Source: Escherichia phage UP30. From it: DNA of 49,834 nt. Of the stretch, positions 2,654 to 23,146 are shown piece by piece. Position 1 is the first letter of the stretch. Each line of letters begins with the position of its first letter. The position numbers and the translations under genes are program-made. The notes under the pieces were generated by a model. The model was not told the DNA's origin. It ran no database searches and saw nothing but the letters and a program-made list of their open reading frames with translations. Where the stretch lies: sequence record OX638287. One strand, written 5' to 3'.

Positions 2654-3142
2654 ATGAAAATCAAATTACTTTGCACTGGCGGTTATAAAGGCTTTACCCG
2701 AGATCTGGAAGCAGACCCTATCGTGGTTGATGCGGTGAAGTGTGATGATAGCCTCGGCGGCTACCGCGTGAAGTTTGACGACCTGGTTAAAGCTGGTGTG
2801 TACGATCTGGATTATGGACTTTCGGTTAGCCCGGTAGTCGGCCCGGCAGATTTCAACGAGAAGGACGGAACGATGTTCTTTTTTGAATGGGAAGTGCAAT
2901 CAAACATCAAGCCGCGCAAGGTTCGTCTTCTCAGCAATGGCGGCTACCCTATGCGCCCAGGTTATGAGAATCGCACGTTCCCGGTTATCGTTGACTTTGA
3001 AGAAATCACCGCACACTTAGCTTATATCAACGGTGAACAGCTTAATGCTGTTGGATTCGTGGGAGGTATGAATCAAGAGGCGCTATGCTTCTTCCATTGT
3101 AAAGCCGAGCCGTTCGATATTGAGTGCGAATTGGTTTACTAA
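2654..3142 (+). CDS. hypothetical protein (162 aa)
   Basis: ORF after promoter module, GAGGA RBS. Confidence 0.6.
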   Translation: MKIKLLCTGGYKGFTRDLEADPIVVDAVKCDDSLGGYRVKFDDLVKAGVYDLDYGLSVSPVVGPADFNEKDGTMFFFEWEVQSNIKPRKVRLLSNGGYPMRPGYENRTFPVIVDFEEITAHLAYINGEQLNAVGFVGGMNQEALCFFHCKAEPFDIECELVY

Positions 3143-3183
3143 GCACGAATTGTTAAAAGTGGATTTGGCCTGACTGGTATAAT
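3141..3183 (+). promoter_or_regulatory. early promoter module
   Basis: aagcacgaattgttaaaag; TGgTATAAT 3175-3183. Confidence 0.55.
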
Positions 3184-3720: not shown

Positions 3721-3869
3721 TGGTTACCTGGGTTTTGATTATCCTGATGAGCAATGGACCGGATCACGTATATATGAACAGCCAGCATTCATGCAATGAG
3801 GCTCGGGCAGTCATTGCAGATAACAAGCCGTTCGGATACGAAGTAAAAACTATGTGCGTTAAACGATAG
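3720..3869 (+). CDS. putative small protein (49 aa, MVTWVLIILMSNGPDH...)
   Basis: TAATG overlap with upstream stop, GAGGTG RBS, stop TAG embedded in box; hydrophobic N-terminus. Confidence 0.4.
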   Translation: MVTWVLIILMSNGPDHVYMNSQHSCNEARAVIADNKPFGYEVKTMCVKR

Positions 3870-3914
3870 CACGAATTGCTAAACCTTCCGCAAGGCCATT
3901 TGATATAGTGGCCT
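3867..3914 (+). promoter_or_regulatory. early promoter module
   Basis: tagcacgaattgctaaac; aaggccatTTGATATAGTggcctt. Confidence 0.6.
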
Positions 3915-5237: not shown

Positions 5238-5456
5238 ATGGCTACTATCATGACAGCAGAAGATGCAGCACGCGACGCAGTGGAAGGAATGCGCCCAAAT
5301 AGCTCCAGAATCGCCCACTACTACAAATCTGAGGTGTCGGCAGTGCAATTGACCCACGAAATTTTAAGGCTCCCACAGGTCGATTCAGCGCGCGTAGTGA
5401 CGTGCTTAAAAAATTATTTTTGCATTGCTATTAAAACGAATAGCACGAATTGCTAA
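5238..5456 (+). CDS. hypothetical protein (72 aa)
   Basis: ORF with AAGGGTG RBS; stop TAA embedded in box. Confidence 0.35.
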   Translation: MATIMTAEDAARDAVEGMRPNSSRIAHYYKSEVSAVQLTHEILRLPQVDSARVVTCLKNYFCIAIKTNSTNC

Positions 5457-5488
5457 AACCTATCAAGGGGAATGCGCTATGATTCCCC
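5441..5488 (+). promoter_or_regulatory. early promoter module
   Basis: tagcacgaattgctaaaac; ggggaatgcgcTATGATtcccc. Confidence 0.55.
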
Positions 5489-5513: not shown

Positions 5514-5960
5514 ATGAAACACTTAATCTGTATTGAAGCACCTAACGATGAATACACTCTTCACGGCATTGGTATGTTCAAAGGTCACTATATGACCGCA
5601 AGCATTTACGACGCGCATCGAGGTGACGGCGATCTAATGATTAAGTCAAAAGAGGTTAATCCGTACATCATGCAGAATCTTGGTAATAACGAATATATGG
5701 CCTACGGATGCAATGCGGTTTACAAGCACATCAAGATCCGCAAGCGTGTAGTGCGTGCATTCAAGAAAATTGCAATGAAGCACTGGAAGATGAGCAAGAA
5801 GGACGCCGGACGCTGGGCGCGCAATGTTGCTGACTCATACTTCTACCGTAACGGTGAGTCCTGCTACTTCCTTATCGATGAACTTATGGAAAACTGCGGA
5901 GGCGACTTCAGCCAGATTAGCTTTGACGATTGGGCTAACTATGAGATTAGTTGCTGGTAA
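5514..5960 (+). CDS. hypothetical protein (148 aa)
   Basis: Track ORF starts at 5472 inside the hairpin; ATG 5514 follows GAGGAAACA RBS. Confidence 0.5.
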   Translation: MKHLICIEAPNDEYTLHGIGMFKGHYMTASIYDAHRGDGDLMIKSKEVNPYIMQNLGNNEYMAYGCNAVYKHIKIRKRVVRAFKKIAMKHWKMSKKDAGRWARNVADSYFYRNGESCYFLIDELMENCGGDFSQISFDDWANYEISCW

Positions 5961-6009
5961 TGGCACGAATTGCTAAAACTTGCTCAAGGGTATTTGATAG
6001 AATGCCCTT
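5961..6009 (+). promoter_or_regulatory. early promoter module
   Basis: tggcacgaattgctaaaac; aagggtatTTGATAGAATgccctt. Confidence 0.55.
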
Positions 6010-6685: not shown

Positions 6686-7258
6686 ATGAAAACAGCTATC
6701 ATTTTAAACGGCGCGCCGGGCGCTGGTAAGGACACTATCGGCGCAATCCTGGCTGACATTTACGATCACGTAGCTTTGCGCAGCTTCAAAGAGCCGATGT
6801 TTGAGATTGCTCGGGCAATACTTGGTGAAACTAACTACGAGTATTTCATGTTCTTGTATGAGGACCGTCGATACAAAGAAGAGCCAGCATCTATCCTGAA
6901 CGGTAAAAGCCCACGCCAGTTTATGATCTGGATTAGCGAAGAGGTAATCAAGCCACAGTTCGGCAATCGCTTCTTCGGTATGCGAGCGGAAAGTAAGGTG
7001 AAAGAGTCGTACTCCCTTTCGGTATTTACTGACGGTGGATTCAAAGATGAGATCTTGCAAATGATTGAAGGCGATATCCAGGTAAAGCTATGTCGAATCC
7101 ATCGCAACGGTTGCAACTTCGATAATGACAGTCGCGATTATATCTACCTGGATGATATGATCGGGGTCAACGGTTATCAGGAATGTGATTTCTTCTCTGT
7201 TGAGGGTCATCCTGAAATTACCGCTCAGCACATAGCCGCCACATTCATCAATAAATAG
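6686..7258 (+). CDS. P-loop kinase, dNMP-kinase-like (190 aa)
   Basis: N-terminal GAPGAGKDT Walker A of the GKDT type seen in phage dNMP kinases. Confidence 0.5.
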   Translation: MKTAIILNGAPGAGKDTIGAILADIYDHVALRSFKEPMFEIARAILGETNYEYFMFLYEDRRYKEEPASILNGKSPRQFMIWISEEVIKPQFGNRFFGMRAESKVKESYSLSVFTDGGFKDEILQMIEGDIQVKLCRIHRNGCNFDNDSRDYIYLDDMIGVNGYQECDFFSVEGHPEITAQHIAATFINK

Positions 7259-7303
7259 CACGAATTGCTAAAGCGTCGGTGGGGTGATTTGATATAGTTA
7301 CCT
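7256..7303 (+). promoter_or_regulatory. early promoter module
   Basis: tagcacgaattgctaaagc; TGaTATAGT 7290-7298. Confidence 0.55.
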
Positions 7304-7330
7304 CATCGACAACGAAGAGAGAAAATCGAA

Positions 7331-7540
7331 ATGATGGTATCAACTGATAAGCTTTTCACTTGCACTAAAACTTCTGAAGTATTCGAACTTATCCATACTG
7401 ATGATGGCGATTTCATGTATGACGGTTGCGACGCTTTCATTGAAGTGAAAGAAAGTGACTATGACGAAGGCGTTTATTATAATCCGGCAGTGAGCACTCA
7501 GTTTTTTACACCGATCGAAGAAGAAGGAGAAGGGGCATGA
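7331..7540 (+). CDS. hypothetical acidic protein (69 aa)
   Basis: ORF after promoter module. Confidence 0.5.
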   Translation: MMVSTDKLFTCTKTSEVFELIHTDDGDFMYDGCDAFIEVKESDYDEGVYYNPAVSTQFFTPIEEEGEGA

Positions 7541-7884
7541 TTACGATTAACCTGTCAGAGAAGCAAGCTCGTGAAATACTTGATGCTATTGGCGATCAAT
7601 TACACGTAAAGGGTGCTGCGGCTGAATTGCTAAACCAGATCGACAAACAACTAACTCCAATATCGACGAATCAAGCTGAGTTTGCAGTCTGGAAAAGTGA
7701 GCGAATCTTGCCAAATATTATCAAGGCGTGGAAGCGCAAGCATAAAAAGCAGGTTAACGTAGAGGAATTATTTACCGATGAATTAAGTCCTGCTAAGGTT
7801 GCTCAGTACCAGTTGCGATACATGGAGTCGGTTTGTAATCAGGTTTTAGGTTTGGATATAAAAATGGTAAAAGGTGATAAATAA
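7537..7884 (+). CDS. hypothetical protein (115 aa)
   Basis: ORF, ATGA overlap with upstream gene. Confidence 0.55.
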   Translation: MITINLSEKQAREILDAIGDQLHVKGAAAELLNQIDKQLTPISTNQAEFAVWKSERILPNIIKAWKRKHKKQVNVEELFTDELSPAKVAQYQLRYMESVCNQVLGLDIKMVKGDK

Positions 7885-8114
7885 TGTTCGGTTTAAGTGA
7901 AGCGGAATGGAATGTAGTAAAGCGTGCGGCTAAAGAACTAAATAAATTCGTCAGTGGCATGAAGAAAGAAGACCGTAAAAACGACAAGATCATGATTGAC
8001 GTGATTTCTACTCATCACAAAAAGGTCGAGCTACTAATTGACCGTTACAAGTTTGTATGGACCGCCGGGTATATTGCCGGGCGCGTAGGCAACAAAGAAG
8101 GGGATTACGAGTAA
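7884..8114 (+). CDS. hypothetical protein (76 aa)
   Basis: ORF, TAATG overlap. Confidence 0.5.
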   Translation: MFGLSEAEWNVVKRAAKELNKFVSGMKKEDRKNDKIMIDVISTHHKKVELLIDRYKFVWTAGYIAGRVGNKEGDYE

Positions 8115-8317
8115 TGGATAATTTACCAAAGAAAGGCAATCAGGTTCGATGCATCACTTCACGCAATGGTGATGCTTTCTCGGCGGGATGTTTGTACGAC
8201 GTTGAAAAAGTCAGTAAAGCTAAGAGACTCGTATATGTGTACGGAGATGATGGAAACATGCATGAGATTGATTACCCGCAGGATATGAGTAAGGGTCAGT
8301 TTGAAATTAATGATTGA
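8114..8317 (+). CDS. hypothetical protein (67 aa)
   Basis: In-frame ATG within ORF 8057-8317, TAATG overlap with upstream stop. Confidence 0.45.
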   Translation: MDNLPKKGNQVRCITSRNGDAFSAGCLYDVEKVSKAKRLVYVYGDDGNMHEIDYPQDMSKGQFEIND

Positions 8318-8480
8318 CCTACATCCCTGAGCGGTGATAGTATTAATCCCGTAGACAGACGAGGCGCAACGAAGCGCAACGCGTGAGACGATTCTCACTC
8401 TTCCAGCTAACAAGCTCGGTTGCATAGTTGTTAAGCAACGCCGCAGACCCGTAAGCGGCAACAATTCAAGAGGATTGCAT

Positions 8481-8645
8481 AATGCAAAACACTAAAGACG
8501 AATCAGTCAAAATTGAAATTAAAGTAACTCGCAACGGCAAAACCACTCGTTATAAGAAACGTTTGAATCCGGGCGAGGCTGTTATTGGTCGCATTTCTGG
8601 CGTTATGATTAAGGCGCAGGAAGATGAAGCGATTCAAAGTTAAAT
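8481..8645 (+). CDS. putative small basic protein (54 aa)
   Basis: ATG after AAGAGGATTGCATA RBS; not in ORF track (<60 aa). Confidence 0.3.
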
Positions 8646-8659
8646 TAATCATTCGAAAG

Positions 8660-8809
8660 ATGGGGATGTTTTGCCAGTCGTGCAAGCAATCTTTCGAAAC
8701 TGAATTATCAGCAACCAGTCAGGAAGAGGCCATCACGAAAGCTAAGAAACTTTCTGGAGCCAATCTTGACACTCACAAAATAAACATTGAATTAATAAAG
8801 GAGATTTAA
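8660..8809 (+). CDS. putative small CxxC protein (49 aa)
   Basis: In-frame internal ATG of ORF 8624-8809; start uncertain. Confidence 0.3.
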   Translation: MGMFCQSCKQSFETELSATSQEEAITKAKKLSGANLDTHKINIELIKEI

Positions 8810-8810
8810 T

Positions 8811-9038
8811 ATGACCATTTTTTTATCGATTCTTGCTGGTGTCGTTATTTTTGGTGCTGGTTTGTTTGCTGGCTTCGCACTTGTTGCGGCCGCAATTGCG
8901 ATGGACGCGAAGGATAAGACTGGCGTATGGCTGACCTACTCACCTAAGAAGGACCAATGGGAAATGTTTGGCGACTTTGCTCACTGCTACTCTAAAGCTC
9001 AGACCCACCCTAAAGGAATTAAGCGACGATTGTCGTGA
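8811..9038 (+). CDS. small membrane protein (75 aa)
   Basis: Hydrophobic N-terminal half; followed by intrinsic terminator. Confidence 0.5.
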   Translation: MTIFLSILAGVVIFGAGLFAGFALVAAAIAMDAKDKTGVWLTYSPKKDQWEMFGDFAHCYSKAQTHPKGIKRRLS

Positions 9039-9047
9039 TAAACACTA

Positions 9048-9070
9048 ACCCGCTTCGGCGGGTTTTTTTA
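9048..9070 (+). terminator. intrinsic terminator at end of early block
   Basis: cccgc-ttcg-gcggg then T7. Confidence 0.7.
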
Positions 9071-9081
9071 TGCCTGCAATA

Positions 9082-9107
9082 TGGTAAAATAGCACTAAAT
9101 GTTAAAC
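9082..9107 (+). promoter_or_regulatory. terS promoter: extended -10 TGgTAAAAT directly followed by dyad box
   Basis: TGGTAAAAT 9082-9090; tagcactaaatgttaaac 9090-9107; ATG 9123. Confidence 0.45.
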
Positions 9108-9122
9108 AAAGAGGATGTATTT

Positions 9123-9647
9123 ATGAGTGAACCTAAGAATGCTCCCGTAGTCCAGGGAGGTAATTTCAAAGAGCTATACAAGAAAAAGTTCGGCACTGTT
9201 CTTGCGAAGAACCGGGCAATGACGCCTGAGCAATTATTCGATCTATCAGTGAAGTACTTTGAATGGGCCGAAGATAATGCGATTAAGGCGTCTGAGTCTG
9301 CCAGCTTCCAGGGTGGCGTTTACGAGTCACTTGTTCATAAACCTCGCGTCTTCACCTGGACCGGATACCGACTATTCATCGGCGCAAGCGAGGCCGCGAT
9401 CATTAAATGGAAGCGCGAGGAGGAATACAGTGAGGTTATGGAGTTCGTGGAATCCGTAATCAACGAGCAAAAATTCCAACTTGCCGCCAACGGTGTTATT
9501 AACGCCTCCTTTATCGGTAAGGATTTAGGGATCGATAAGCCAGCTTCAATCAATATCGAAAACTCGGCAGCTTCCGCGTCGACCGCCGTCGCCACTACTG
9601 AGGACGCAATGAAAGAGGCAGTAAACAGCATTCTTGATATGCTTTAA
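9123..9647 (+). CDS. terS: terminase small subunit (putative)
   Basis: Position immediately upstream of TerL; size; ATG 9123 with AAAGAGGA RBS (track ORF starts at 9099 inside the box). Confidence 0.5.
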   Translation: MSEPKNAPVVQGGNFKELYKKKFGTVLAKNRAMTPEQLFDLSVKYFEWAEDNAIKASESASFQGGVYESLVHKPRVFTWTGYRLFIGASEAAIIKWKREEEYSEVMEFVESVINEQKFQLAANGVINASFIGKDLGIDKPASINIENSAASASTAVATTEDAMKEAVNSILDML

Positions 9648-9686
9648 CGTTACGGGCGTGCAAGCGCCCATACAGGAGACTTGATT

Positions 9687-11255
9687 ATGATTCAATGGGA
9701 AGAACTCGACGCAACTCAGAAGTTGGCGATCAAGAAAATGAGCGAGGCCAATTTCGAAAAAATGATTCGGATCTGGTTCCAGCTTATGCAGGCTCAGCAG
9801 TTCCAGCCTAACTGGCATCACCTTTACCTATGTCACGAAGTGGAGGAAATTATTGCAGGCCGACGCGGGAACACTATCTTTAACGTCACTCCAGGCTCCG
9901 GTAAAACTGAGGTATTCTCAATTCACCTTCCTGTATACGCGATGCTCAAGTGTAAGAAGGTGCGAAACCTTAACGTGTCGTTTGCCGACAGTCTGGTGAA
10001 GCGTAACAGTAAGCGCGTGCGTGAGATTATCAGCAGCAACGAGTTCCAGGAGCTATGGCCTTGCAAGTTTGGCACATCGAAAGACGAAGAGATGCAAGTG
10101 CTTAATGACGATGGAAAGGTTTGGTTTGAGTTAATCTCCGCTGCGGCTGGCGGTCGTATTACTGGTTCGCGTGGTGGCTACATGATGCCGGGATTTTCCG
10201 GGATGGTAATGCTCGACGATATCGACAAGCCTGATGATATGTTCTCAAAGGTTAAGCGTGAGCGTACGCATATGCTATTGAAGAACACCATTCGATCCCG
10301 TCGTATGCATAACGAAACTCCAATTATCGCAATACAGCAGCGACTACACGCACAAGATTCGACGTGGTTCATGATGAATGGCGGCATGGGTATTGAGTTC
10401 GATCAGATCTCAATTCCGGCACTAGTAACTGAAGAGTACGGCAAGACGCTTCCTGACTGGTTACAGCCTTACTTTGAGCGCGACGTTTTGTCGTCTGAAT
10501 ATGTAGAGTTGGATGGAGTTAAGCATTACTCATTCTGGCCCAGCAAGGAAAGCGTTCACGACCTGTTAGCGCTTCGAGAAGCGGACCAGTATACCTTTGA
10601 CTCTCAGTATCAGCAGAAGCCGATCGCGCTTGGTGGCTCCGTGTTTAACTCTGAGTGGTGGACTTATTACGGTAGCAGCCTTGACGCTGACGAGCCAGAT
10701 CCGGGTAAATATGATTACCGTTTTATCACTGCCGATACCGCTCAGAAGACAGGCGAGCTAAACGACTACACGGTCTTTTGTTTGTGGGGCAAGAAAAACG
10801 ATAAGGTTTACTTTATTGACGGCATTCGCGGTAAGTGGGAAGCGCCTGATATGGAGAAACAATTTACCGCATTCGTTAATCAGGCGTGGAGACACAATAA
10901 ATCAATGGGTGTGCTTCGCAAAATTTACGTGGAAGATAAAGCGAGCGGTACGGGGCTGATCCAGAATCTCAGGAAAAAGACCCCGATCTCTATCACTCCA
11001 TTGCAGCGTAACAAAGACAAAGTTACCCGCGCGATGGATGCTCAGCCAGTCATCAAGGCTGGGCGCGTAGTTCTTCCAGAAGAGCACCCTATGCTCGCGG
11101 AAATTATCGCAGAACATAGCGCGTTCACTTACGATGACACGCATCCGCACGACGATATTGTCGATAACTTCATGGACGCTGCAAACATTGAGCTACTGAC
11201 AATTGACGATCCTATCGAGCGAATGAAGCGACTCGCCGGGATGGTTAAGCGGTAA
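9687..11255 (+). CDS. terL: terminase large subunit
   Basis: ~520 aa, N-terminal ATPase region (TPGSGKTE), position before portal; ATG 9687 after AGGAG. Confidence 0.8.
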   Translation: MIQWEELDATQKLAIKKMSEANFEKMIRIWFQLMQAQQFQPNWHHLYLCHEVEEIIAGRRGNTIFNVTPGSGKTEVFSIHLPVYAMLKCKKVRNLNVSFADSLVKRNSKRVREIISSNEFQELWPCKFGTSKDEEMQVLNDDGKVWFELISAAAGGRITGSRGGYMMPGFSGMVMLDDIDKPDDMFSKVKRERTHMLLKNTIRSRRMHNETPIIAIQQRLHAQDSTWFMMNGGMGIEFDQISIPALVTEEYGKTLPDWLQPYFERDVLSSEYVELDGVKHYSFWPSKESVHDLLALREADQYTFDSQYQQKPIALGGSVFNSEWWTYYGSSLDADEPDPGKYDYRFITADTAQKTGELNDYTVFCLWGKKNDKVYFIDGIRGKWEAPDMEKQFTAFVNQAWRHNKSMGVLRKIYVEDKASGTGLIQNLRKKTPISITPLQRNKDKVTRAMDAQPVIKAGRVVLPEEHPMLAEIIAEHSAFTYDDTHPHDDIVDNFMDAANIELLTIDDPIERMKRLAGMVKR

Positions 11256-11273
11256 TAAATGAGATATAATCAA

Positions 11274-11298
11274 GGCTGTCAATTGACGGCCTTTTTTA
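11274..11298 (+). terminator. terminator/attenuator between terL and portal
   Basis: ggctgtc-aatt-gacggcc then T6. Confidence 0.45.
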
Positions 11299-11309
11299 TT
11301 GGAGGAAAC

Positions 11310-12593
11310 ATGAAAATTGTTAAGCATGATGGATATAACGATATCTTTAACGGCGGTGCGGACGGTTCACCTAAGCCATTTTTTATGTCAGATGCATCAT
11401 ATCACGTAGGATCTTTCTACAATGACAATGCCACGGCAAAGCGTATTGTAGATGTGATTCCTGAAGAGATGGTGACGGCTGGGTTTAAAATATCAGGCGT
11501 TAAGGATGAGAAAGAATTCAAATCTCTGTGGGATAGTTACAAAATTGATCCTAGCTTGGTTGACGTTCTTTGCTGGGCGCGCCTATACGGTGGAGCGGCT
11601 ATTGTAGCGATCATTAATGACAACAGAATGCTAACCAGTCCAGTTAAGCCTGGAGCTAAACTTGAAGGTGTGCGTGTTTACGATAGGTTCGCAATTACAA
11701 TCGAAAAAAGAGTAACCAATGCGCGATCGCCTCGCTATGGTGAGCCTGAGATCTATAAGGTGTCTCCTGGTGACAATATTCAACCTTACTTAATCCACCA
11801 CACGAGAATTTTCATTACTGATGGTGAGAGAGTTACCCCTCAGATGCGGAAGCAGAATCAGGGGTGGGGCGCTTCAGTTTTGAATAAGTCACTGATTGAT
11901 GCAATCTGCGACTACGACTATTGCGAATCACTTGCGACTCAGATCCTGCGGCGTAAGCAACAGGCGGTATGGAAGGTCAAAGGTCTTGCCGAAATGTGCG
12001 ATGATGACGATGCTCAGTATGCGGCGCGTCTGCGACTTGCTCAGGTTGATGATAACTCAGGCGTAGGCCGCGCGATCGGTATCGATGCTGAGACGGAAGA
12101 ATACGATGTTCTAAACTCTGATATCAGCGGAGTACCTGAGTTCTTGTCAAGCAAGATGGATCGTATTGTTTCCCTTTCCGGGATTCATGAGATTATCATC
12201 AAAAATAAGAACGTAGGCGGCGTATCAGCGAGCCAAAACACAGCGCTTGAGACTTTCTATAAGTTGGTAGATCGTAAGCGTGAGGAAGATTATAGACCGC
12301 TTCTTGAGTTCTTGTTGCCGTTCATTGTTGACGAGGAAGAGTGGTCGATCGAGTTCGAGCCGTTGTCGGTCCCGAGCAAGAAAGAAGAATCCGAGATTAC
12401 GAAGAACAATGTTGAGTCTGTGACGAAAGCTATCACTGAGCAAATCATCGATCTGGAAGAGGCTCGCGATACGTTGCGCTCTATCGCTCCTGAGTTTAAA
12501 CTCAAGGACGGTAATAACATTAACATTCGCGAACCAGAAGAAACAACCGAGCCGGAACCGGGATTAGGGGAGAAGTTAGAAGATGAAAATTAA
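11310..12593 (+). CDS. portal protein
   Basis: 427 aa directly after TerL, acidic C-terminus; ATG 11310 after GGAGGAAACA (track ORF starts inside upstream hairpin). Confidence 0.75.
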   Translation: MKIVKHDGYNDIFNGGADGSPKPFFMSDASYHVGSFYNDNATAKRIVDVIPEEMVTAGFKISGVKDEKEFKSLWDSYKIDPSLVDVLCWARLYGGAAIVAIINDNRMLTSPVKPGAKLEGVRVYDRFAITIEKRVTNARSPRYGEPEIYKVSPGDNIQPYLIHHTRIFITDGERVTPQMRKQNQGWGASVLNKSLIDAICDYDYCESLATQILRRKQQAVWKVKGLAEMCDDDDAQYAARLRLAQVDDNSGVGRAIGIDAETEEYDVLNSDISGVPEFLSSKMDRIVSLSGIHEIIIKNKNVGGVSASQNTALETFYKLVDRKREEDYRPLLEFLLPFIVDEEEWSIEFEPLSVPSKKEESEITKNNVESVTKAITEQIIDLEEARDTLRSIAPEFKLKDGNNINIREPEETTEPEPGLGEKLEDEN

Positions 12594-13344
12594 TGGCGTT
12601 GCTACTCAGTGGCGCTATCCTGAAATGAGTGAGCGTGCAATGTCGCGCTCCCTACAGGATGTAGCAGCCAAACTAACTGAAAAAATGCGTAACGAATTAA
12701 AGCCGATGAAATTTGATGCTACCGACGAAGAGATAGATCAGGCAGAAAGGTCATTGCTTGATTACGTTGAATCGCTCATCGCGCCGATTATCGGATCTCT
12801 ATCATCCGTTGCGCTCACGATCTATAAATTCAACTCTAAGCAGTGGCTGCGCATCGCTCGCAATGCTGGAGGTAAGAAGAATCAAGCTGTTATGCTACTT
12901 GCCCTGATTGGTCCCACCGCTGCCGAAAGCTGGTACTCAGGACAATATAATCTGTGGCGATCGCAGGTGACTACTTCTATCAGGAAATTTGCTGCCAACA
13001 TGGTTACTGATTTCACTGATAAACTTCGTGCAGCATCCGGTCAGGGTAAAAGCAAGGATTTCGTGGCTGAACTGGTTAAGGAGCGATTTGGCATTTACCG
13101 AAATTGGGCCAAAAACAGAGCGTCGGGAATCGTCGGAACGTGGAACAGTAGACTGATGCGGCAACGCATAAAAGACGCTGGAGTATCTTGCTACTTCTGG
13201 CGCGGGGTGATGGATTTACGCGAACGTGAAAAACATGTAAGATGGGAAGGTAAGCGCATAGCGGTAGATTCTGATCATGTATTCCCTGGTGAAGAATACA
13301 ATTGCCGTTGTTGGGCTGTTCCAGACTTTTCTACAGGAGATTAA
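12583..13344 (+). CDS. head morphogenesis protein (Mu F / SPP1 gp7-like)
   Basis: Position after portal; C-terminal HVFPGEEYNCRCW motif. Confidence 0.65.
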   Translation: MKINGVATQWRYPEMSERAMSRSLQDVAAKLTEKMRNELKPMKFDATDEEIDQAERSLLDYVESLIAPIIGSLSSVALTIYKFNSKQWLRIARNAGGKKNQAVMLLALIGPTAAESWYSGQYNLWRSQVTTSIRKFAANMVTDFTDKLRAASGQGKSKDFVAELVKERFGIYRNWAKNRASGIVGTWNSRLMRQRIKDAGVSCYFWRGVMDLREREKHVRWEGKRIAVDSDHVFPGEEYNCRCWAVPDFSTGD

Positions 13345-13346
13345 AA

Positions 13347-14459
13347 ATGAAGGCAAAGCAAAGATTCGATTCGGTAAAAATCAAGGCGCATTTTGATGAT
13401 AATGGTTTTTTGGTTGACCGTCCCATCGTAGCGCGAATCGGTGCTCAGGTTTACAAAACGCCACACGGAGATCGCGTTGAGTTTCGTCCTGCGTCCGAAG
13501 TGTTCAAACAAGACTCATTGCAAAGTTTTGCAGGCAAGCCGATTACAGTCGGGCACGTAACGGTGACGCCAAAAAATGCTAAGGATGTTGTTGTCGGATC
13601 GTGTGCTGGTGCTGGTATTGCTTCAGGGGTTGGTGTTGAAGTTCCTTTGAGTATTTACAGTGAATACGCGATCGGTAAGGCAAAAGCGAAGGAGGCCGGG
13701 GAATTGTCAGTTGGCTACACGTCAGTTGATATTGATAAACCTGGTTGGGGTTCAAACGAAACTGGAGAATATATCTTCGAAGAGGATATGAAACAGGATG
13801 AAGCGCCGCCTGAAGGATGGGTGAAGTTCGACGCGGTACAGACCAATATTAAGGTCAATCATATCGCCCTGGTCTTCAAAGGTCGTGCGGGAATTGCTAA
13901 ATTAAACCTTGATGCCGAACAGGAATTTCCGTATGATAATAACGTTCAATCAACCAACGAGGACAAGCAAATGAAAAAAATTAAGATCGATTCAGTTGAT
14001 GTGGAAGTAACCGAAGACGTTGCGAACCATATCGAAAAGTTAACCGCACAGATCGCTACCATTCAGGGCAAAGCTGATGGTTTCGAAGCAGAACGCGACG
14101 CGCTCAAGGTCAAGGTTGACTCTCTACCGGAACTGGTAAAAGCAGAAGTGGAGAAGCAGAAAGCTGACGCAGCCGCACGCGCAGAAGTCACGGCAGTAGC
14201 AGAAACCGCAGGCGTTAAGCATGACGGCCTTGAAATCAAAGACGTTAAGGTGGCGGTTGTGAAAGCAATGCTGAACAAAGACGTTAGCGAAAAATCTGAT
14301 GCATACATCGACGCCATGTTTGATGTTGCTAAGGATTCTGATATTATGGCTATTCAGCGTAAAGCGGTAAAAGGCGACTCTATCGAAGACGGCAAGCCGG
14401 AAGAGAAAAACGACGCCGCGCCTGTTACGCCAAATTCACGTTTAAGTAAAGTAATGTAA
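13347..14459 (+). CDS. putative prohead protease / scaffold protein (370 aa)
   Basis: Position between head morphogenesis gene and capsid-region genes; Lys/Glu/Ala-rich coiled-coil-like C-terminus. Confidence 0.45.
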   Translation: MKAKQRFDSVKIKAHFDDNGFLVDRPIVARIGAQVYKTPHGDRVEFRPASEVFKQDSLQSFAGKPITVGHVTVTPKNAKDVVVGSCAGAGIASGVGVEVPLSIYSEYAIGKAKAKEAGELSVGYTSVDIDKPGWGSNETGEYIFEEDMKQDEAPPEGWVKFDAVQTNIKVNHIALVFKGRAGIAKLNLDAEQEFPYDNNVQSTNEDKQMKKIKIDSVDVEVTEDVANHIEKLTAQIATIQGKADGFEAERDALKVKVDSLPELVKAEVEKQKADAAARAEVTAVAETAGVKHDGLEIKDVKVAVVKAMLNKDVSEKSDAYIDAMFDVAKDSDIMAIQRKAVKGDSIEDGKPEEKNDAAPVTPNSRLSKVM

Positions 14460-14470
14460 GGAGAAAAATT

Positions 14471-14947
14471 ATGGCACAGATTAACGCATCTTATCAGCGC
14501 GACATGGCGATCGCCCTTCCGGGTATGGTTGCTGACACTTCCAAATACAACATCGACGGCGCTTGTGTCGTTAACGAAGGTGATGTTTTTGTTGGTGCTG
14601 CTGTTCAGGTTGTCCAAGCTCAGGCTGTTGATGGTCATAAACTGGTTAAGGCTATGGAAGCGTCTAAAGTACCGTACGGCGTAGCGATTCGTTCTCACTG
14701 GCAGACTGTCAACGCTCAAAACCAGATGGTTTATGAAGAAGGTGGCGCAATCAACGTAATGACCTCCGGGCGAGTCTGGATGCTTTCAAAATCAGAAGAA
14801 GCACCAACTTTCGGAACTGCTGTTAAGTTAGATGTTGATGGTCAGGAAAAATCTGATGGCACGATCGAAACTACCTGGACTTACGCTGGCGGCTGGACTA
14901 AATACAAAGACATTCAGCTTGTAGAAGTTCAGTTGCATCAACTGTAA
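14471..14947 (+). CDS. head protein, paralog A (158 aa), possible decoration protein
   Basis: Shares TSxYNIDGACV...PYGxAxRS...GRxWxL...EAP block with the next gene. Confidence 0.5.
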   Translation: MAQINASYQRDMAIALPGMVADTSKYNIDGACVVNEGDVFVGAAVQVVQAQAVDGHKLVKAMEASKVPYGVAIRSHWQTVNAQNQMVYEEGGAINVMTSGRVWMLSKSEEAPTFGTAVKLDVDGQEKSDGTIETTWTYAGGWTKYKDIQLVEVQLHQL

Positions 14948-15007
14948 TTAGCGTTTAATATGGGGACTATCCTTTTTGGATGGTCCTTTTTTTATGGAGA
15001 AATAATT

Positions 15008-15772
15008 ATGGCTTACGAAAATTTAATGTTGCGCCCGGCGTGTCCTGGAAATCTTTCCGATACTTCAACCTACAATATTGATGGTGCTTGCGTTGCGCAG
15101 GGTGATATTGAGTTCGGCTCGGCGGTACAGGTTATCGGGATCGTTGATGGTGTTAAAGTCGTTACGGCGCTTACTGATGGTGGAACTCCTTACGGTATAG
15201 CTTTCCGTTCCCAATATGAACACCTGAGCGGTAAAATCTTAGACGGCGAAGTGTGCAACGTAGTTTCTTACGGTCGAATGTGGACGCTTACTTCTCTTGA
15301 TGAGGCTCCCGGCTTATTCTCAAAGTTGCAATTTGGATCTGGTGGCGTTGTTACTGGTGGATCTGGTTCCGTAGGTTGGACCTTCGCGGGTGGATTTGTT
15401 AAGCATGAAGACGGCTACATCATTGAGGTTCAGGTGAAACAAAATGCTTTCATCGTCCCACCGCCGCCTCCAGTTGTTCTTGTTGAATCAGCTACGATCA
15501 CTACCGACAAGGAAAGTCCTCAGCCTAACAACGTTACGATTCAGTGCGTAGCTAATGTTCTTCCTGTGAACGCTGATGATAAAACTGGCAAGTGGTCAAT
15601 TGACGCCACCAACATTGCTACTGTGGATCCGGACTCAGGTTTGGTTACTCCTGTAGGTGGAGAAGTCGTCGGTAACTTCAATATCACATGGACGGCTAAC
15701 GACGCCAGCAAGACGAAGGCAACTATTGCCTATCGCGTAGAAGCGGCTCCAACTCCAGAAGGTGAGTCATAA
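15008..15772 (+). CDS. head protein, paralog B with C-terminal Ig-like (Big_2-type) domain
   Basis: N-terminal paralogy to 14471-14947; PPPPP linker then Ig-like domain; ATG 15008 after GGAGAAATAATT. Confidence 0.5.
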   Translation: MAYENLMLRPACPGNLSDTSTYNIDGACVAQGDIEFGSAVQVIGIVDGVKVVTALTDGGTPYGIAFRSQYEHLSGKILDGEVCNVVSYGRMWTLTSLDEAPGLFSKLQFGSGGVVTGGSGSVGWTFAGGFVKHEDGYIIEVQVKQNAFIVPPPPPVVLVESATITTDKESPQPNNVTIQCVANVLPVNADDKTGKWSIDATNIATVDPDSGLVTPVGGEVVGNFNITWTANDASKTKATIAYRVEAAPTPEGES

Positions 15773-15784
15773 CACAAAAATGCT

Positions 15785-15812
15785 TTGACGCTTTAACAAA
15801 AAGTGCTATTAT
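15785..15812 (+). promoter_or_regulatory. strong sigma70-type promoter of capsid gene (TTGACG-16-TGcTATTAT) with inverted box in spacer
   Basis: -35 15785-15790, -10 15807-15812; box ttaacaaaaagtgctatta 15793-15811. Confidence 0.55.
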
Positions 15813-15816
15813 TGAA

Positions 15817-15845
15817 GCCGTGAACATAATCACGGCTTTTTTATT
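15817..15845 (+). terminator. hairpin + U-run in capsid gene 5' leader
   Basis: gccgtga-acataa-tcacggc then T6. Confidence 0.45.
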
Positions 15846-15863
15846 AACTAAGGAGAAATAATT

Positions 15864-16823
15864 ATGGCTACTAAAAAATTTGATGAAGCAGACAAAAGCA
15901 ATGTCGAAATGTATCTGATCCAGGCTGGCGTAAAGCAGGATGCAGCAGCAACTATGGGTATCTGGACCGCTCAGGAACTACACCGCATCAAAAACCAGTC
16001 TTACGAAGAAGATTACCCTGTCGGCTCCGCGCTGCGAGTATTCCCGGTTACTACCGATCTTTCTCCGACTGACAAGACTTTCGAATACATGACCTTTGAT
16101 AAGGTTGGCACGGCTCAGATTATCGCGGACTACACCGACGACCTGCCGCTTGTTGATGCCCTGGGCACTTCTGAGTTCGGTAAAGTGTTCCGTTTGGGTA
16201 ACGCGTATCTGATCTCAATCGACGAAATCAAAGCGGGTCAGGCAACTGGTCGCCCACTGTCAACTCGTAAGGCAAGTGCATGTCAGTTAGCGCATGACCA
16301 ACTGGTTAACCGTCTGGTGTTCAAAGGTTCCGTGCCGCACAAGATCGTGTCCGTGTTCAATCATCCGAACATCACCAAAATTACCTCCGGTAAGTGGATG
16401 GATGGCGCAACTCAGAAACCGGAAACAGCAGAAGCTGAATTGACTCAGGCAATCGAAACCATCGAGACGATTACTCGCGGTCAGCATCGTGCAACCAACA
16501 TTCTGATCCCGCCGTCCATGCGTAAGGTATTGGCTATTCGTATGCCTGAGACTACCATGTCTTATCTGGACTACTTCAAGTCTCAGAATGCTGGTATCGA
16601 GATCGACTCTATCGCAGAGCTTGAAGATATCGACGGCGCGGGTACTAAAGGTGTGCTGGTTTACGAAAAGAATCCGATGAACATGTCCATCGAGATCCCG
16701 GAAGCATTCAACATGCTGCCAGCACAGCCGAAAGACTTGCACTTTAAAGTGCCTTGCACCTCTAAGTGTACTGGTCTTACAATTTATCGCCCGATGACTA
16801 TTGTCTTAATCACTGGCGTGTAA
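15864..16823 (+). CDS. major capsid protein (putative)
   Basis: 319 aa, strong promoter upstream and strong terminator downstream, position in head module. Confidence 0.65.
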   Translation: MATKKFDEADKSNVEMYLIQAGVKQDAAATMGIWTAQELHRIKNQSYEEDYPVGSALRVFPVTTDLSPTDKTFEYMTFDKVGTAQIIADYTDDLPLVDALGTSEFGKVFRLGNAYLISIDEIKAGQATGRPLSTRKASACQLAHDQLVNRLVFKGSVPHKIVSVFNHPNITKITSGKWMDGATQKPETAEAELTQAIETIETITRGQHRATNILIPPSMRKVLAIRMPETTMSYLDYFKSQNAGIEIDSIAELEDIDGAGTKGVLVYEKNPMNMSIEIPEAFNMLPAQPKDLHFKVPCTSKCTGLTIYRPMTIVLITGV

Positions 16824-16830
16824 TATCATA

Positions 16831-16861
16831 GGGGCTAACTTAGTTAGTCCCTTTTTTTTTA
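16831..16861 (+). terminator. strong intrinsic terminator after capsid gene
   Basis: 8-bp stem, then T9. Confidence 0.75.
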
Positions 16862-16875
16862 TTGGAGAAATCAAA

Positions 16876-17163
16876 ATGGCTAAAGAAAAAACTGTTGTTA
16901 TCGTAAACGTTGGTGTAGCTCTTCAAATGTTCCGTCTTGAAGATGGTTCATTTGCTAAAGTTCTTCCAGATGAAGAGGTCACGCTTCCGGCGTCCGTTCT
17001 TGATTTACCTGGCCTGCGTTGCTTAATTGCTCGCGAAGAAATCGAAGTTAAAGACGATAGTGCAACCAACCGCAAAATCCGCGATGAAATGGCAAAGATC
17101 ACGAAGCCAGATCCGTGGGATAGCAAAAGCGTTAAAGAGCTTGAGGACGGCGGCGAATATTAA
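16876..17163 (+). CDS. hypothetical structural protein (95 aa)
   Basis: ORF bracketed by two terminators within the head module. Confidence 0.5.
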   Translation: MAKEKTVVIVNVGVALQMFRLEDGSFAKVLPDEEVTLPASVLDLPGLRCLIAREEIEVKDDSATNRKIRDEMAKITKPDPWDSKSVKELEDGGEY

Positions 17164-17169
17164 TCATCA

Positions 17170-17196
17170 AGGCGCTCATGTAGCGCCTTTTTTTAT
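17170..17196 (+). terminator. intrinsic terminator
   Basis: aggcgct-catgt-agcgcct then T7. Confidence 0.7.
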
Positions 17197-17207
17197 GGAG
17201 GTAAATT

Positions 17208-17618
17208 ATGAATCAAGAAACTTTAATTGCAGTTGTTGAGCAGATGCGAAAGCTGGTTCCGGCACTTCGTAAGGTTCCAGATGAAACGCTTTATGCATGG
17301 GTAGAAATGGCTGAGCTATTCGTCTGCCATAAGACCTTCAAAGATGCATACGTCAAAGCGCTTGCTCTTTATGCATTGCATCTTGCCTTCCTTGATGGCG
17401 CGCTAAAAGGTGAAGATGAAGATCTGGAGTCTTACTCACGACGCGTTACGTCATTCTCCCTGAGTGGTGAATTTAGCCAGACTTTCGGAGAGGTTACGAA
17501 GAACCAGTCAGGGAACGTGATGCTTTCAACGCCGTGGGGTAAGATGTTTGAACAGCTTAAAGCGCGCCGCCGTGGTCGATTTGCATTAATGACCGGACTC
17601 CGTGGAGGATGCCACTAA
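17208..17618 (+). CDS. head-tail connector/adaptor (putative)
   Basis: Position and size. Confidence 0.45.
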   Translation: MNQETLIAVVEQMRKLVPALRKVPDETLYAWVEMAELFVCHKTFKDAYVKALALYALHLAFLDGALKGEDEDLESYSRRVTSFSLSGEFSQTFGEVTKNQSGNVMLSTPWGKMFEQLKARRRGRFALMTGLRGGCH

Positions 17619-17989
17619 TGAACTACTCACAAATTGAACGAATGGCCCGGAAGGGTGTAGCTTTCTTCACCGACCCATCCAGGCCAATGAACCTGATAAA
17701 AAAAGGTGAATATGGTTACGACGAGAACGGATTCGAGATCCCACCGATGGAACAGGTTATTCCAATATCTGGAGCAACTCGCAGGCCAAAGGCTCGGGAG
17801 ATTGACGGGGAAACAATCCGTGCCTCAGACCTTTTGGGGATCTTCAATAATGACCATGAGATAAAAGAAGGCGACTATATAGAAATTGATGGTGTGCGTC
17901 ATGTTGTCGTTGACGCTCGTCCGGTGCAGGCATCATTAGAGCCTGTTGCCTATCGTCCAGTATTGCGGAGGATATCAGTCGGTGGCTAA
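17609..17989 (+). CDS. head closure / neck protein (putative)
   Basis: Position, overlapping start. Confidence 0.4.
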   Translation: MPLMNYSQIERMARKGVAFFTDPSRPMNLIKKGEYGYDENGFEIPPMEQVIPISGATRRPKAREIDGETIRASDLLGIFNNDHEIKEGDYIEIDGVRHVVVDARPVQASLEPVAYRPVLRRISVGG

Positions 17990-18425
17990 CTATCAGATTC
18001 GCAGGTTTCAAGGTGAGATTGATGCGTGGATTAAGGCTGCTGAGAGCACACTAGAGCACGCCATAGAGATATTCGTCAGAGATGTGCATAGCGCTCTCGT
18101 TAGCCGCTCTCCGGTCGATACGGGTCGCTTTAAGGGTAACTGGCAGATAACTTTTAACGAAATCCCCAACTACGCATTAAACCGATACGATAAAACTGGC
18201 GGCGTCGTCCGTTGGGAAGAGCAAGCCAAAACTTATGGCATGTTCAGCCGTGGCGGCGCTATAACATCCGTTCACTTCTCAAACATGTTGATTTATGCAA
18301 ACGCACTTGAATACGGTCACTCGCAACAAGCACCAAGCGGCGTCGTAGGTCTGGTGGCGCTAAGGCTGAGATCGTATATGGCAGACGCAATCAAACAAGC
18401 AAGGAGACAACAAAATGCACTATGA
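17982..18425 (+). CDS. tail completion / neck protein (putative)
   Basis: Track ORF starts at TTG 17946; GTG 17982 is a plausible start; start uncertain. Confidence 0.35.
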   Translation: MANYQIRRFQGEIDAWIKAAESTLEHAIEIFVRDVHSALVSRSPVDTGRFKGNWQITFNEIPNYALNRYDKTGGVVRWEEQAKTYGMFSRGGAITSVHFSNMLIYANALEYGHSQQAPSGVVGLVALRLRSYMADAIKQARRQQNAL

Positions 18426-18813
18426 GTTATCAGCGGCGGCACGCGCCGCCTTTCTTTCAAAATACAGGGACTTTCCTCACTACATGGAAAACCGTAACTT
18501 TACACCTCCGAAGGACGGCGGTGTGTGGCTGAGGTTCAACTACATTGAAGGCGACACGCTTTATCTATCCATTGATAGAAAATGCAAGTCTTACATTGCG
18601 ATCGTGCAAGTCGGTGTAGTGTTTCCACCAGGCTCCGGCGTTGATGAAGCAAGATTGAAAGCAAAAGAGATTGCCGATTTTTTCAAAGATGGTAAAATGC
18701 TTAACGTTGGTTATATTTTCGAGGGTGCAATCGTGCATCAAATTGTTAAACACGAAAGCGGTTGGGTGATTCCAGTTCGCTTTACAGTACGAGTAGACAC
18801 AAAGGAGACTTAA
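18415..18813 (+). CDS. tail terminator-like protein (putative)
   Basis: Position just before major tail protein. Confidence 0.4.
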   Translation: MHYELSAAARAAFLSKYRDFPHYMENRNFTPPKDGGVWLRFNYIEGDTLYLSIDRKCKSYIAIVQVGVVFPPGSGVDEARLKAKEIADFFKDGKMLNVGYIFEGAIVHQIVKHESGWVIPVRFTVRVDTKET

Positions 18814-18815
18814 TT

Positions 18816-19484
18816 ATGCACTTACCAAATGGCGCACAAATTTTCGTAGAAACCTCTCGCGGCGATGAGATTGATGCTTCTGCGGTTAGCAATGCTGAGC
18901 GACCCGTTGCAACGGTAGCATCTAAGGGTGATTTAGCTAAAGGTGATTACGTTATTGTAACTCAGTCAACTTGGGCTAAAATTGTTAGCCGAGTCCTTAT
19001 TGTGACCGACGCTCAAGAAACAGAAATTACACTGGCTGGAATTGACACATCTGATACTCTTGTTTTCCCGTCTGGCGGCACAATGAGTTTTGCAAAAATT
19101 ACTGGTTGGACTGAGATTCCATGCGTGCAGGAGATTGGTCAGGACGGTGGCGAGCAGCAGTATTACACGTATCAGTGTTTGTCTGACGACAAAGAGCAGC
19201 AGATCCCGACTTTTAAATCTGCGATCTCGCTAACTTATACTTTTGCTCACGAATTTGATAACCCGATCTACCCGATTCTGCGCAAGCTGGATGCATCTGG
19301 TCAGGTAACTGCGGTTCGAATGTATGTACCTAAAGCAAGTGAGATGCGTATGTGGGCTGGCATCTTATCGTTTAACGACATTCCATCCACGCAGGTTAAC
19401 GAGATGGAAACGGTTGAATTATCCGTATCCCTGAAAGGTGACTTTACTTTCGTATCTTCCACTCTAGCATCGCCTGGTGCTTAA
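18816..19484 (+). CDS. major tail protein (putative)
   Basis: ATG 18816 after AAAGGAG; terminator downstream; precedes G/GT chaperone. Confidence 0.55.
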   Translation: MHLPNGAQIFVETSRGDEIDASAVSNAERPVATVASKGDLAKGDYVIVTQSTWAKIVSRVLIVTDAQETEITLAGIDTSDTLVFPSGGTMSFAKITGWTEIPCVQEIGQDGGEQQYYTYQCLSDDKEQQIPTFKSAISLTYTFAHEFDNPIYPILRKLDASGQVTAVRMYVPKASEMRMWAGILSFNDIPSTQVNEMETVELSVSLKGDFTFVSSTLASPGA

Positions 19485-19496
19485 ATCATATCCACA

Positions 19497-19525
19497 GGGG
19501 GCTTGCGCCCCCTTCTTCATTTCTG
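19497..19525 (+). terminator. terminator after major tail protein gene
   Basis: ggggg-cttgc-gccccc then T-rich tract. Confidence 0.5.
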
Positions 19526-19560
19526 TAAAATCATCGTATCAACTTTATTCACTTCGTTTT

Positions 19561-19578
19561 TAACAAAAAGTGCTATTA
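19561..19578 (-). promoter_or_regulatory. dyad box, inverted relative to downstream tail chaperone gene
   Basis: taacaaaaagtgctatta; followed by CCAATCAGGAG leader. Confidence 0.45.
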
Positions 19579-19597
19579 ACCAATCAGGAGAAATATC

Positions 19598-19915
19598 ATG
19601 GCTAAATTCAATTTTGTGCTGGGCCAACTTCCAGACTTCAAACTTCCGGTAACTTTCACCATGCCAAACGGTGAAGATGCGACGATTATTTTTACCGTTC
19701 GCCACCTTTCCAGCAAAGAAGTACAGGATATGTACGCAAAACAGGGTGAAATGAATGATAGCGATTTCATCACTAAGATCGCGTCAGGCTGGAACGTTGA
19801 AGAAGAATTTAACGAAGATAACGCACGCAAACTGGTACAGTATTACCCATCCGCAGCGTACAATCTTACAGCCACTTACATTAAGGCTCTTGCCGGACAC
19901 CGCGCAAAAAACTAA
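19598..19915 (+). CDS. tail assembly chaperone (lambda gpG-like)
   Basis: Small acidic protein before tape measure; ends at slippery A_AAA_AAC. Confidence 0.65.
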   Translation: MAKFNFVLGQLPDFKLPVTFTMPNGEDATIIFTVRHLSSKEVQDMYAKQGEMNDSDFITKIASGWNVEEEFNEDNARKLVQYYPSAAYNLTATYIKALAGHRAKN

Positions 19916-20232
19916 AAAGGGCGGTCTATCTGTTATATCAGAAGCCGCCAACAGAAGAGCAACTACGATCGGTCGGCCTTAGTCTTTCTGACTATGAGGA
20001 CGAAGAACCGGAGACGATAATCGGTGACGCTGAGATGGTGAAGGCGTGGAATGTTTTTACGTCAATGCTCACTCAGTGGAGAAGTTCAGGCGCTGGCGCT
20101 TATGGTCTTGACTATAATGTTTTGCCTATGTTGTTTAAAATCTATAAAATAGAAGATGAAGAACTGGCATTGCAGGACGTTAGAATCATGGAAGCGAAAG
20201 CGCTTGAAATGATTGCTAAACAGAACAACTAA
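19598..20232 (+). CDS. tail assembly chaperone G-T fusion via -1 programmed frameshift
   Basis: Heptamer A AAA AAC at 19906-19912; -1 frame open from there to 20232. Confidence 0.55.
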
Positions 20233-20254
20233 GCCGCCGTTTGGCGGTTTTTTC
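20233..20254 (+). terminator. weak terminator/attenuator before tape measure gene
   Basis: ccgcc-gttt-ggcgg then T6. Confidence 0.4.
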
Positions 20255-20270
20255 GTATATAGGGGGTTAT

Positions 20271-23144: not shown

Positions 23145-23146
23145 TA

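Follow-up and report, generated by a model that had tools for sequence, protein, structure and literature searches.

Locus and element

The DNA analysed here (the window) is the 49,834-nucleotide (nt) stretch of Escherichia phage UP30, record OX638287, a T1-like phage (Tunavirus, Drexlerviridae). The element described lies in the gap between the homologues of T1 Orf58 (8114–8317) and Orf57 (8482–8643) and consists of a promoter followed by a predicted folded non-coding RNA of roughly 120 nt. It is very probably a functional RNA element. The ~1.3 kb around it is 91–92% identical to phage T1 and other Tunavirus genomes. The counterpart of the gap in the T1 record (T1 7591–7754, AY216660) has no annotated feature; the predicted RNA would occupy ~7624–7742 there. 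The parts of the element in UP30, from 5' to 3', are the following (HP, hairpin).

8314–8319, + strand: -35 hexamer TTGACC, overlapping the TGA stop codon (8315–8317) of the Orf58 homologue.
8335–8343, + strand: extended -10, TGA-TAGTAT (TG 8335–8336; TAGTAT 8338–8343), spacer 18 nt.
8351–8363, + strand: predicted transcript start G8351, placed by the distance of 7–8 nt to the -10, and conserved unpaired 5' segment GUAGACAGACGAG (13 nt).
8364–8377, + strand: HP1, GCGC stem, loop AACGAA.
8378–8382, + strand: linker AACGC, with a nearly invariant AA(C) following HP1.
8383–8398, + strand: HP2, GUGAGA-CGAU-UCUCAC.
8405–8416, + strand: small hairpin AGCU-AACA-AGCU of the centroid fold, T1 clade only; variable linker in other genera.
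8416–8418, + strand: conserved UCG immediately 5' of HP3 (T66, C67 and G68 invariant in an alignment of 18 sequences).
8419–8439, + strand: HP3, GUUGC stem, loop AUAGUUGUUAA.
8440–8459, + strand: HP4, GCCGC stem, loop AGACCCGUAA with a conserved CGUAA at its 3' end.
8460–8469, + strand: tail AACAAUUCAA; a tRNA gene is inserted right behind it in Vilniusvirus, ESCO41 and ES.

The promoter spacer holds a conserved CTGAnnGG (8327–8334), and the 5' segment is unpaired in the centroid fold. The small hairpin at 8405–8416 has no covariation support; different inserts occupy its site in other genera, e.g. GCGUCA-UUGA-UGGCGC in Vilniusvirus. A first-pass annotation of the window had reported the same -35, 18-nt spacer and TAGTAT, with the -35 at 8313–8318 instead of 8314–8319, and the hairpin gtgaga-cgat-tctcac, which is found at 8383–8398. 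The duplicated gcgcaacg that it listed is present (GCGCAACG, 8364–8371 and 8374–8381) but is no repeat motif: it arises from the palindromic HP1 stem GCGC/GCGC, each arm being followed by AACG. The open reading frame (ORF) that it placed downstream exists as well, with its ATG at 8482, not 8481, and a length of 53 amino acids (aa), not 54.

In UP30 alone neither promoter nor fold exceeds chance: promoter-like sites in 7000–10000 number 7, with 5.1 expected from shuffles, and the fold energy has a z of -1.75 to -1.78, 11–13 of 200 shuffles folding equally well. The feature is judged real because of its conservation and covariation in relatives, not on single-sequence statistics.

Distribution and conservation

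Syntenic loci were collected from many genera by tblastn with Orf58 and by a profile of the protein of the downstream orf56. In all of them the gap is made up of TTGAC, 17–18 nt, an extended -10 and, after 6–8 nt, the near-invariant GUAGACAnAAGAG, followed by hairpins. The -10 region at the equivalent place reads TGGTACATT, TGGTATCTT, GGGTAACGT and similar. A covariance model built from nine sequences gives exactly one match per locus, always on the + strand and always at the syntenic site. Matches were obtained in Tunavirus, Sertoctavirus, Vilniusvirus, Nouzillyvirus, Eclunavirus, Braunvirinae, Tlsvirus, Webervirus-type and SLUR29/swan01-type phages; the unit of promoter and RNA stands at the equivalent position in every Drexlerviridae genus fetched. 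TLS and the loci missed by a promoter-based pattern (L158, L174, L195–L200) were recovered by the model, and the promoter is present there too. TTGAC is found in every relative examined, including the model-only matches L158, L195–L200 and TLS, and the distance from promoter to conserved 5' end is fixed in every relative examined. Conservation in related phages, on which the first-pass annotation had made its proposal depend, is clearly present across the Drexlerviridae.

BLAST with four variants of the element matches 73, 130, 349 and 89 phage records, sets that may overlap, from phages infecting E. coli, Shigella, Klebsiella, Enterobacter, Citrobacter and Salmonella. The element is annotated in none of the records inspected; the features under the matches are flanking hypothetical proteins or nothing. 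The 5,426 complete E. coli genomes searched have no homologue, and of 18 motif matches in 185,579 species genomes the covariance model confirms none. Rfam 15 has no match in the whole window at gathering thresholds; in region 8280–8520 with E up to 10 the only match is a chance one to a plant microRNA (- strand, 11.6 bits against a cut-off of 60 bits). The searchable literature holds no RNA-seq, transcript map, 5'-end mapping or small RNA for T1-like phages. The element is deeply conserved and apparently undescribed; it represents a new family within a known class, phage small RNAs or leaders.

Identity across 15 T1-like genomes is 96.4% for the RNA and 86.8–94.0% for six flanking genes; the variable sites of the RNA lie mostly in loops and linkers. 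G1, U2, A5, C6, A9, A12 and G13 of the 5' segment are invariant among 25 representatives of all three architectures described below. The HP1 loop varies even between close relatives (AACGAA, AACUAA, AAUGAG, AGUUAG). CGTA(A/G) recurs 2–4 times per element.

Covariation and strand

When 30 long-form sequences are aligned to the model, 95.7% of cells pair and both-side changes are seen at 16 of 20 pairs; none of 500 shuffles reaches any of the measures, and slid controls give 24–46%. This alignment leans to the proposed structure, a bias from which the MAFFT-based results are free. With plain MAFFT alignments RNAalifold predicts HP1 and HP2, 7 of the 10 pairs being compensated; with the model-fitted alignment it recovers HP1, HP2 and HP4. 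Structure prediction with covariation across relatives, the check proposed in the first-pass annotation, finds the hairpins kept by compensatory changes, as follows.

HP1: 98% paired in a plain MAFFT alignment (25 sequences, all architectures), both-side changes at 4/4 pairs, slid controls 24–45%. Stem variants are GCGC/GCGC, GCCAC/GUGGC, GCCC/GGGU, GCGG/CCGC and CGGC/GCCG.
HP2: 96.6% of cells pair, both-side changes at 6/6 pairs (model-fitted alignment). Stem variants are GCAUC/GAUGC, GCAGCA/UGCUGC, GUGGC/GCCAC, GUAGC/GCUAC and GCGGC/GUCGC; the loop (G)CGAU(A) varies little.
HP3: pairing reaches 88% of cells, although part of the alignment is out of register. Six or more distinct complementary stems occur, variants being GUUGG/CCAAC, GUGC/GCAC, GGGC/GCCC, GUCGAG/CUCGAC and GCUAU/AUAGC.
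HP4: 99.3% of cells pair, both-side changes at 4/5 pairs (model-fitted alignment). Stem variants are GCCGU/ACGGC, CCGG/CCGG, CUGG/CCAG, GGGGG/CCCCC, GAGGG/CCCUC, GCGGG/CCCGC and GUGGG/CCCAC.

Wobble cells of the G-U/U-G kind number 26 and of the A-C/C-A kind 6, all six of the latter at one mis-registered column of HP3. Because the opposite-strand equivalents of wobble pairs are mismatches, the + strand is taken as the folded strand; it is the strand that the promoter would transcribe. Coding for protein on either strand finds no support: stops occur in all six frames in LF82-10, TLS and L158, and no frame is conserved. By these comparisons, selection is shown to act on the RNA and not on DNA or protein. 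The proposal of a structured leader or small RNA with its own promoter, made in the first-pass annotation, is borne out by the promoter conserved at a fixed distance, the compensatory stem changes, the + strand wobble and a constraint above that of the neighbours.

The same evidence makes a site acting as DNA, be it a packaging start (pac), a replication origin or an operator with CGTAGAC at +1 and recurring downstream, highly improbable. Such a site would suit the position of the element ~600–800 bp 5' of terS, the 2–4 copies of CGTA(A/G) per element and the conserved CTGAnnGG within the promoter spacer. The compensatory changes in the stems, however, and the surplus of G-U cells over A-C cells (26 to 6) point to a single-stranded molecule of the + strand. 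GC skew is uninformative and has nothing at the position of the element. TerS belongs to the P22 gp3 type, and P22 has its pac site within the terS gene. The TLS record starts at the experimentally mapped pac (position 1), and the element is at 7824–7936 there; a pac site was rejected on the ground that the mapped first packaging cut of TLS does not coincide with the element. The TLS record (AY308796, L206) begins AGATTT, and the only HindIII site in its first 11 kb is at 5876, compared with ~5882 bp in the TLS paper. As judged from TLS, the T1-like gene order puts pac ~8 kb 5' of terS, unlike in P22.

Three further pairings were tried and rejected. A closing helix of 5' GAG with tail UUC/CUC is possible, but both sides are nearly invariant and so do not covary, and P818 and CJ19 lack it. 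A pseudoknot of the HP2-loop CGA with the UCG 5' of HP3 amounts to no more than 3 bp and is disrupted in LF82-10. An antiterminator fold competing with the terminators of relatives was dropped, the HP2 loop GCGAUA matching the terminator arm in one clade only.

Architectures

Three architectures occur. The long form (UP30, T1, SRT8, Vilniusvirus, Nouzillyvirus, Eclunavirus, ES, TLS and others) has the 5' segment, HP1, HP2, a variable linker, UCG, HP3, HP4 and an 8-nt tail; its HP4 loop ends in CGUAA, and it has no terminator. The short form (Webervirus and related Klebsiella phages) has the 5' segment, HP1, a GC hairpin (GCCCC/GGGGC) and a short U-rich tail, UUUUAUU in some and only AUUUAC in most, which makes a weak terminator directly 5' of the next ribosome-binding site (RBS). 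The SLUR29/swan01/JK16-type has the 5' segment, HP1, HP2 and a long hairpin with U5–6, a strong terminator, whose loop keeps CCGUAAGAC. The common core of the predicted element is the promoter, the 13-nt 5' segment, HP1, AAC and HP2.

In some long forms a tRNA gene starts 8–25 nt after HP4: tRNA-Ser GCU in Vilniusvirus, tRNA-Arg UCU in ESCO41 and tRNA-Arg CCU in ES. A decaying remnant of a tRNA gene at a hot spot of tRNA insertion, with no function of its own, is scarcely credible as an account of the element. The tRNA-Ser or tRNA-Arg adjoining it in some genera and the T1 HP3 loop (AUAGUGGUUAA), which resembles a D-loop, would be in keeping with one. ARAGORN, however, calls no tRNA in the UP30 window, T1 or SRT8, Rfam has no tRNA match even at E = 10, and the GG of the supposed D-loop is not conserved and is absent even in UP30. 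The real tRNAs of LF82-10, NBD2, ESCO41 and ES adjoin the element and are never inside it. Covariation and a constraint above that of the adjacent genes are not expected of a remnant.

Three side observations concern records of these relatives. In ESCO41 (L015, ~1640–1760), 3' of tRNA-Arg(UCU), a second tRNA-like stretch is found (acceptor CTCGGCG/CGCCGAG, T-arm GCAGG-TTCGATT-CCTGC); it is not called by ARAGORN and may be an interrupted or decayed tRNA. ESCO41 gp18 (L015 1367–1555, - strand), a reverse-strand ORF across the RNA element, is an apparent annotation error. So is the start of the coding sequence placed inside the tRNA-Ser gene in KLB19 and HazelMika (L008 1601–1849 and L011 1592–1849, + strand).

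The architectures bear on a purely post-transcriptional 5' untranslated region, whose hairpins would stabilise the orf57–55 message or set translation of its first ORF, e.g. as operator for a phage RNA-binding protein. This is very unlikely. Where no tRNA intervenes, the last hairpin does stand 5–12 nt 5' of the next Shine-Dalgarno sequence in all architectures, and in one clade the U-tract can pair with that sequence (L197 967–986, where the U-rich tract after the terminator of the element faces the Shine-Dalgarno of the next ORF, GCCTTTCTTTTCAGAGAGGC). The element is not lost, however, where a tRNA (Vilniusvirus, ESCO41, ES) or an extra ORF (Tunavirinae, SLUR29-type) is inserted between it and orf56, and tRNA processing would sever it from the message; both points argue against a purely post-transcriptional leader. 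Nor are 5' stabilisers expected to have an unpaired 5' end of 13 nt.

Neighbouring genes and repeat modules

Downstream of the element are the following features.

8468–8643, + strand: RBS AAGAGG (8468–8473) and orf57 homologue (ATG 8482, 53 aa, PHROG 6666).
8624–9038, + strand: orf56 homologue (61 aa, CxxC) and orf55 homologue (75 aa, one membrane helix), same transcription unit.
9047–9072, + strand: strong intrinsic terminator AACCCGC-TTCG-GCGGGTT then T7, closing the unit just before terS; annotated in T1.

The order agrees with that of T1, in which the gap is followed by three small ORFs, a rho-independent terminator and terS/terL. The orf56 homologue extends over 8624–8809, its start overlapping the end of orf57 by 20 nt; it is present 3' of the element in nearly all relatives examined, none being seen in ES. 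Its predicted model, a confident one (predicted local distance difference test, pLDDT, 87), folds as a small beta-beta-alpha-beta unit. The matches to it are weak throughout (E 0.04 or worse): PurS, archaeal/eukaryotic ribosomal protein LX/eL20 and YkzG, a protein that binds RNA polymerase. They are not used as evidence. None of the neighbouring proteins has a known function.

The first-pass annotation had set the gap apart from the other early intergenic regions, which it described as box modules, and rightly: those regions carry a repeat module, of which the gap has no copy. The module is the published 21-nt repeat, ATAGCACnnnTTGnTAAA, with 27 copies in UP30 (both strands) against 0.39 expected. 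The 21-nt direct repeat of T1 and TLS, aaATAGCACnnnTTGnTAAAA, is a conserved non-coding element of early regions with unknown function (PMC11447400). It is multi-copy (27 in UP30), whereas the element is single-copy and has a canonical -35/-10 and RNA structure. Copies on the + strand are at 786–803, 1525–1542, 2579–2596, 3140–3157, 3866–3883, 5440–5457, 5960–5977, 7255–7272 and 9089–9106, with 18 more on both strands. About 10 nt 3' of the early copies stands an inverted repeat whose arms differ between copies and are still complementary; the arms bracket a TGnTATAGT -10-like sequence (e.g. GGGGTA..TACCCC, GGGATAAC..GTTATCCC, AAGGCCA..TGGCCTT). The TLS paper mentions the repeat only, not the flanking inverted repeat (PMC11447400). 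The copy at 9089–9106 ends 17 nt 5' of the T1-type terS start, too close for a promoter role.

Possible control of elongation in cis

In a further reading, the nascent RNA, alone (like HK022 put) or with a phage or host factor or ligand, would make its own polymerase pass the terminators downstream. This would license transcription from the promoter of the element into orf57–55, the terminase and the structural operon. It is the leading alternative to the reading preferred below, and somewhat unlikely. That the element is a protein-independent, put-like antiterminator RNA used across the Drexlerviridae is unlikely.

The layout favours such control. Transcription from a canonical sigma-70 promoter, the last one before terS, would copy the element first. 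The pre-terS terminator follows in 10/10 relatives scanned and has the AACCCGC/GCGGGTT-type stem in 9/10 (P818 differs); between it and terS these relatives have no repeat module and no obvious promoter. Its positions include L196 1607, L182 1658, L191 1603, L206 (TLS) 8721, L007 2098 and L009 2080. The late region of UP30 (9000–26000, + strand) has ten good intrinsic terminators (9047, 11272, 14962, 15814, 16830, 17169, 18433, 19496, 20231, 25694), one good repeat module (9089) with two weak 2-mismatch matches (23497, 25745), and 29 sigma-70-like sites against 26.6 expected, i.e. no enrichment. The TLS paper counts 21 terminators but just three sigma-70 promoters in intergenic positions (PMC11447400). 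In two of the architectures the element and the next RBS have a terminator and no promoter between them, so that the conserved ORFs there need read-through. HK022 putL sits at the very start of the transcript of a host-polymerase promoter, upstream of terminators, and is active after the tether is cut (PMC9378689), which makes the tRNA insertions compatible with action in cis.

In UP30 the put-type position is occupied: promoter 8314–8343, element from ~8351, terminator at 9047 and nine more downstream. Like putL and putR, the element is phage-encoded, 3' of a host-polymerase promoter, 5' of terminators and folded from the + strand; both kinds are multi-hairpin RNAs of ~70–120 nt (PMC9378689). 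Unlike put, which in the description used for the comparison (PMC9378689) is ~70 nt long with two long bulged stems and a triplex, the element has four or five short simple hairpins of 4–6 bp and a 13-nt unpaired 5' end. It has no sequence similarity to put, and its last hairpin is itself a terminator in some relatives. In the SLUR29-type the conserved CCGUAAGAC is inside the terminator hairpin, which is awkward for an RNA that would suppress that hairpin.

A strong constitutive promoter, a short RNA, a terminator and a long late operon with further terminators are also the layout of lambda PR' ('6S' transcript, Q/qut), with N/nut as the related system. The element shares the order of promoter, short RNA, terminator and late operon with PR'/Q-qut. 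It differs from nut in that neither boxA (CGCUCUUA) nor a boxB-type loop is seen in the inspected sequences, the HP1 loop being freely variable. It differs from qut in having no convincing -10-like pause element in +1 to +13, and its covarying stems argue for a signal in RNA, not in DNA. Action in cis would also leave the late genes running constitutively from a host-type promoter, and phage late operons commonly have partly efficient terminators without any antitermination.

A proposed discrete structured RNA

The preferred reading, put forward tentatively, is that of a discrete, trans-acting small structured RNA that in UP30 is also the 5' leader of orf57–55. Transcription would start at ~G8351 from a host-type sigma-70 extended -10 promoter. 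The product would consist of a 13-nt single-stranded 5' end (GUAGACAnAAGAG), HP1, HP2, a variable linker, HP3 and HP4. A contact surface for a host RNA, a protein or RNA polymerase may be formed by the invariant 5' segment together with the single-stranded CGUA(A/G) copies, with the hairpins as its scaffold. The 3' end in relatives would arise at an intrinsic terminator or, where a tRNA follows directly, through cleavage by RNase P. UP30 and T1 have neither; their RNA would be the 5' leader of an orf57-orf56-orf55 message ending at the 9047 terminator, from which a separate small RNA would have to be processed.

Ending in a terminator in two architectures, with a conserved motif in the terminator loop in one of them, is expected if the released RNA is the functional product. 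The many conserved unpaired nucleotides between covarying stems (5' segment, AAC, CGAU, UCG, CGUAA, CGUA(A/G)) fit a folded binding surface better than a bare seed. As in Hfq-type small RNAs there is an own conserved promoter and a nearly invariant unpaired 5' end of 13 nt; like the enterobacterial RybB and OmrA/B types, the RNA would have this conserved end at the transcript start, followed by hairpins, and some members have an intrinsic terminator. In difference from those types, UP30 lacks a U-tailed terminator (HP4 is followed by AACAAUUC), such a terminator being present in the SLUR29-type and weakly in the Webervirus-type, and many loop nucleotides are conserved, which is unusual for small RNAs with a seed. 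T4 species 1 and 2 (rnaC/rnaD) are small structured RNAs of unknown function, co-transcribed and co-processed with tRNAs. The tRNA genes directly after the element in several genera recall them; there is no sequence relation, and most members of the element family, including UP30, have no tRNA.

Several points weigh against a discrete trans-acting RNA. Its start site, its size and even its existence are predictions. HP4 of UP30 and T1 has no U-tract and the Shine-Dalgarno of orf57 starts 8 nt past HP4, so that the element as it stands is a 5' untranslated region. Conserved loops and junctions with covarying stems would be a better fit for a ligand-, protein- or polymerase-binding RNA than for a classical seed-pairing small RNA. 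In the phage genome the complement of the 5' segment is no better than that of shuffled seeds (best duplex elsewhere -16.6 kcal/mol, against -16 to -23), and within 3 mismatches the 5' segment matches only the element itself. Finally, a position behind the last canonical promoter before a terminator-rich late operon would fit a role in cis equally well.

Significance for T1-like phages

T1 is one of the original Delbrück phages, and its gene regulation is essentially unknown. Host shut-off and the significance of the intergenic repeats are named as open questions in a recent re-annotation of TLS (PMC11447400). The element corrects annotations, at least one record having a reverse-strand ORF across it. 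If the put-like reading were true, only polymerases from this promoter would carry the folded RNA and pass the pre-terS terminator and the ~ten late terminators, and late transcription in T1-like phages without a polymerase, sigma factor or known antiterminator of their own would be explained. Whether it proves to be a phage small RNA directed at a partner in host or phage, or the control element that late transcription still lacks, the element would be a concrete, easily mutated handle on the biology of the T1 family.

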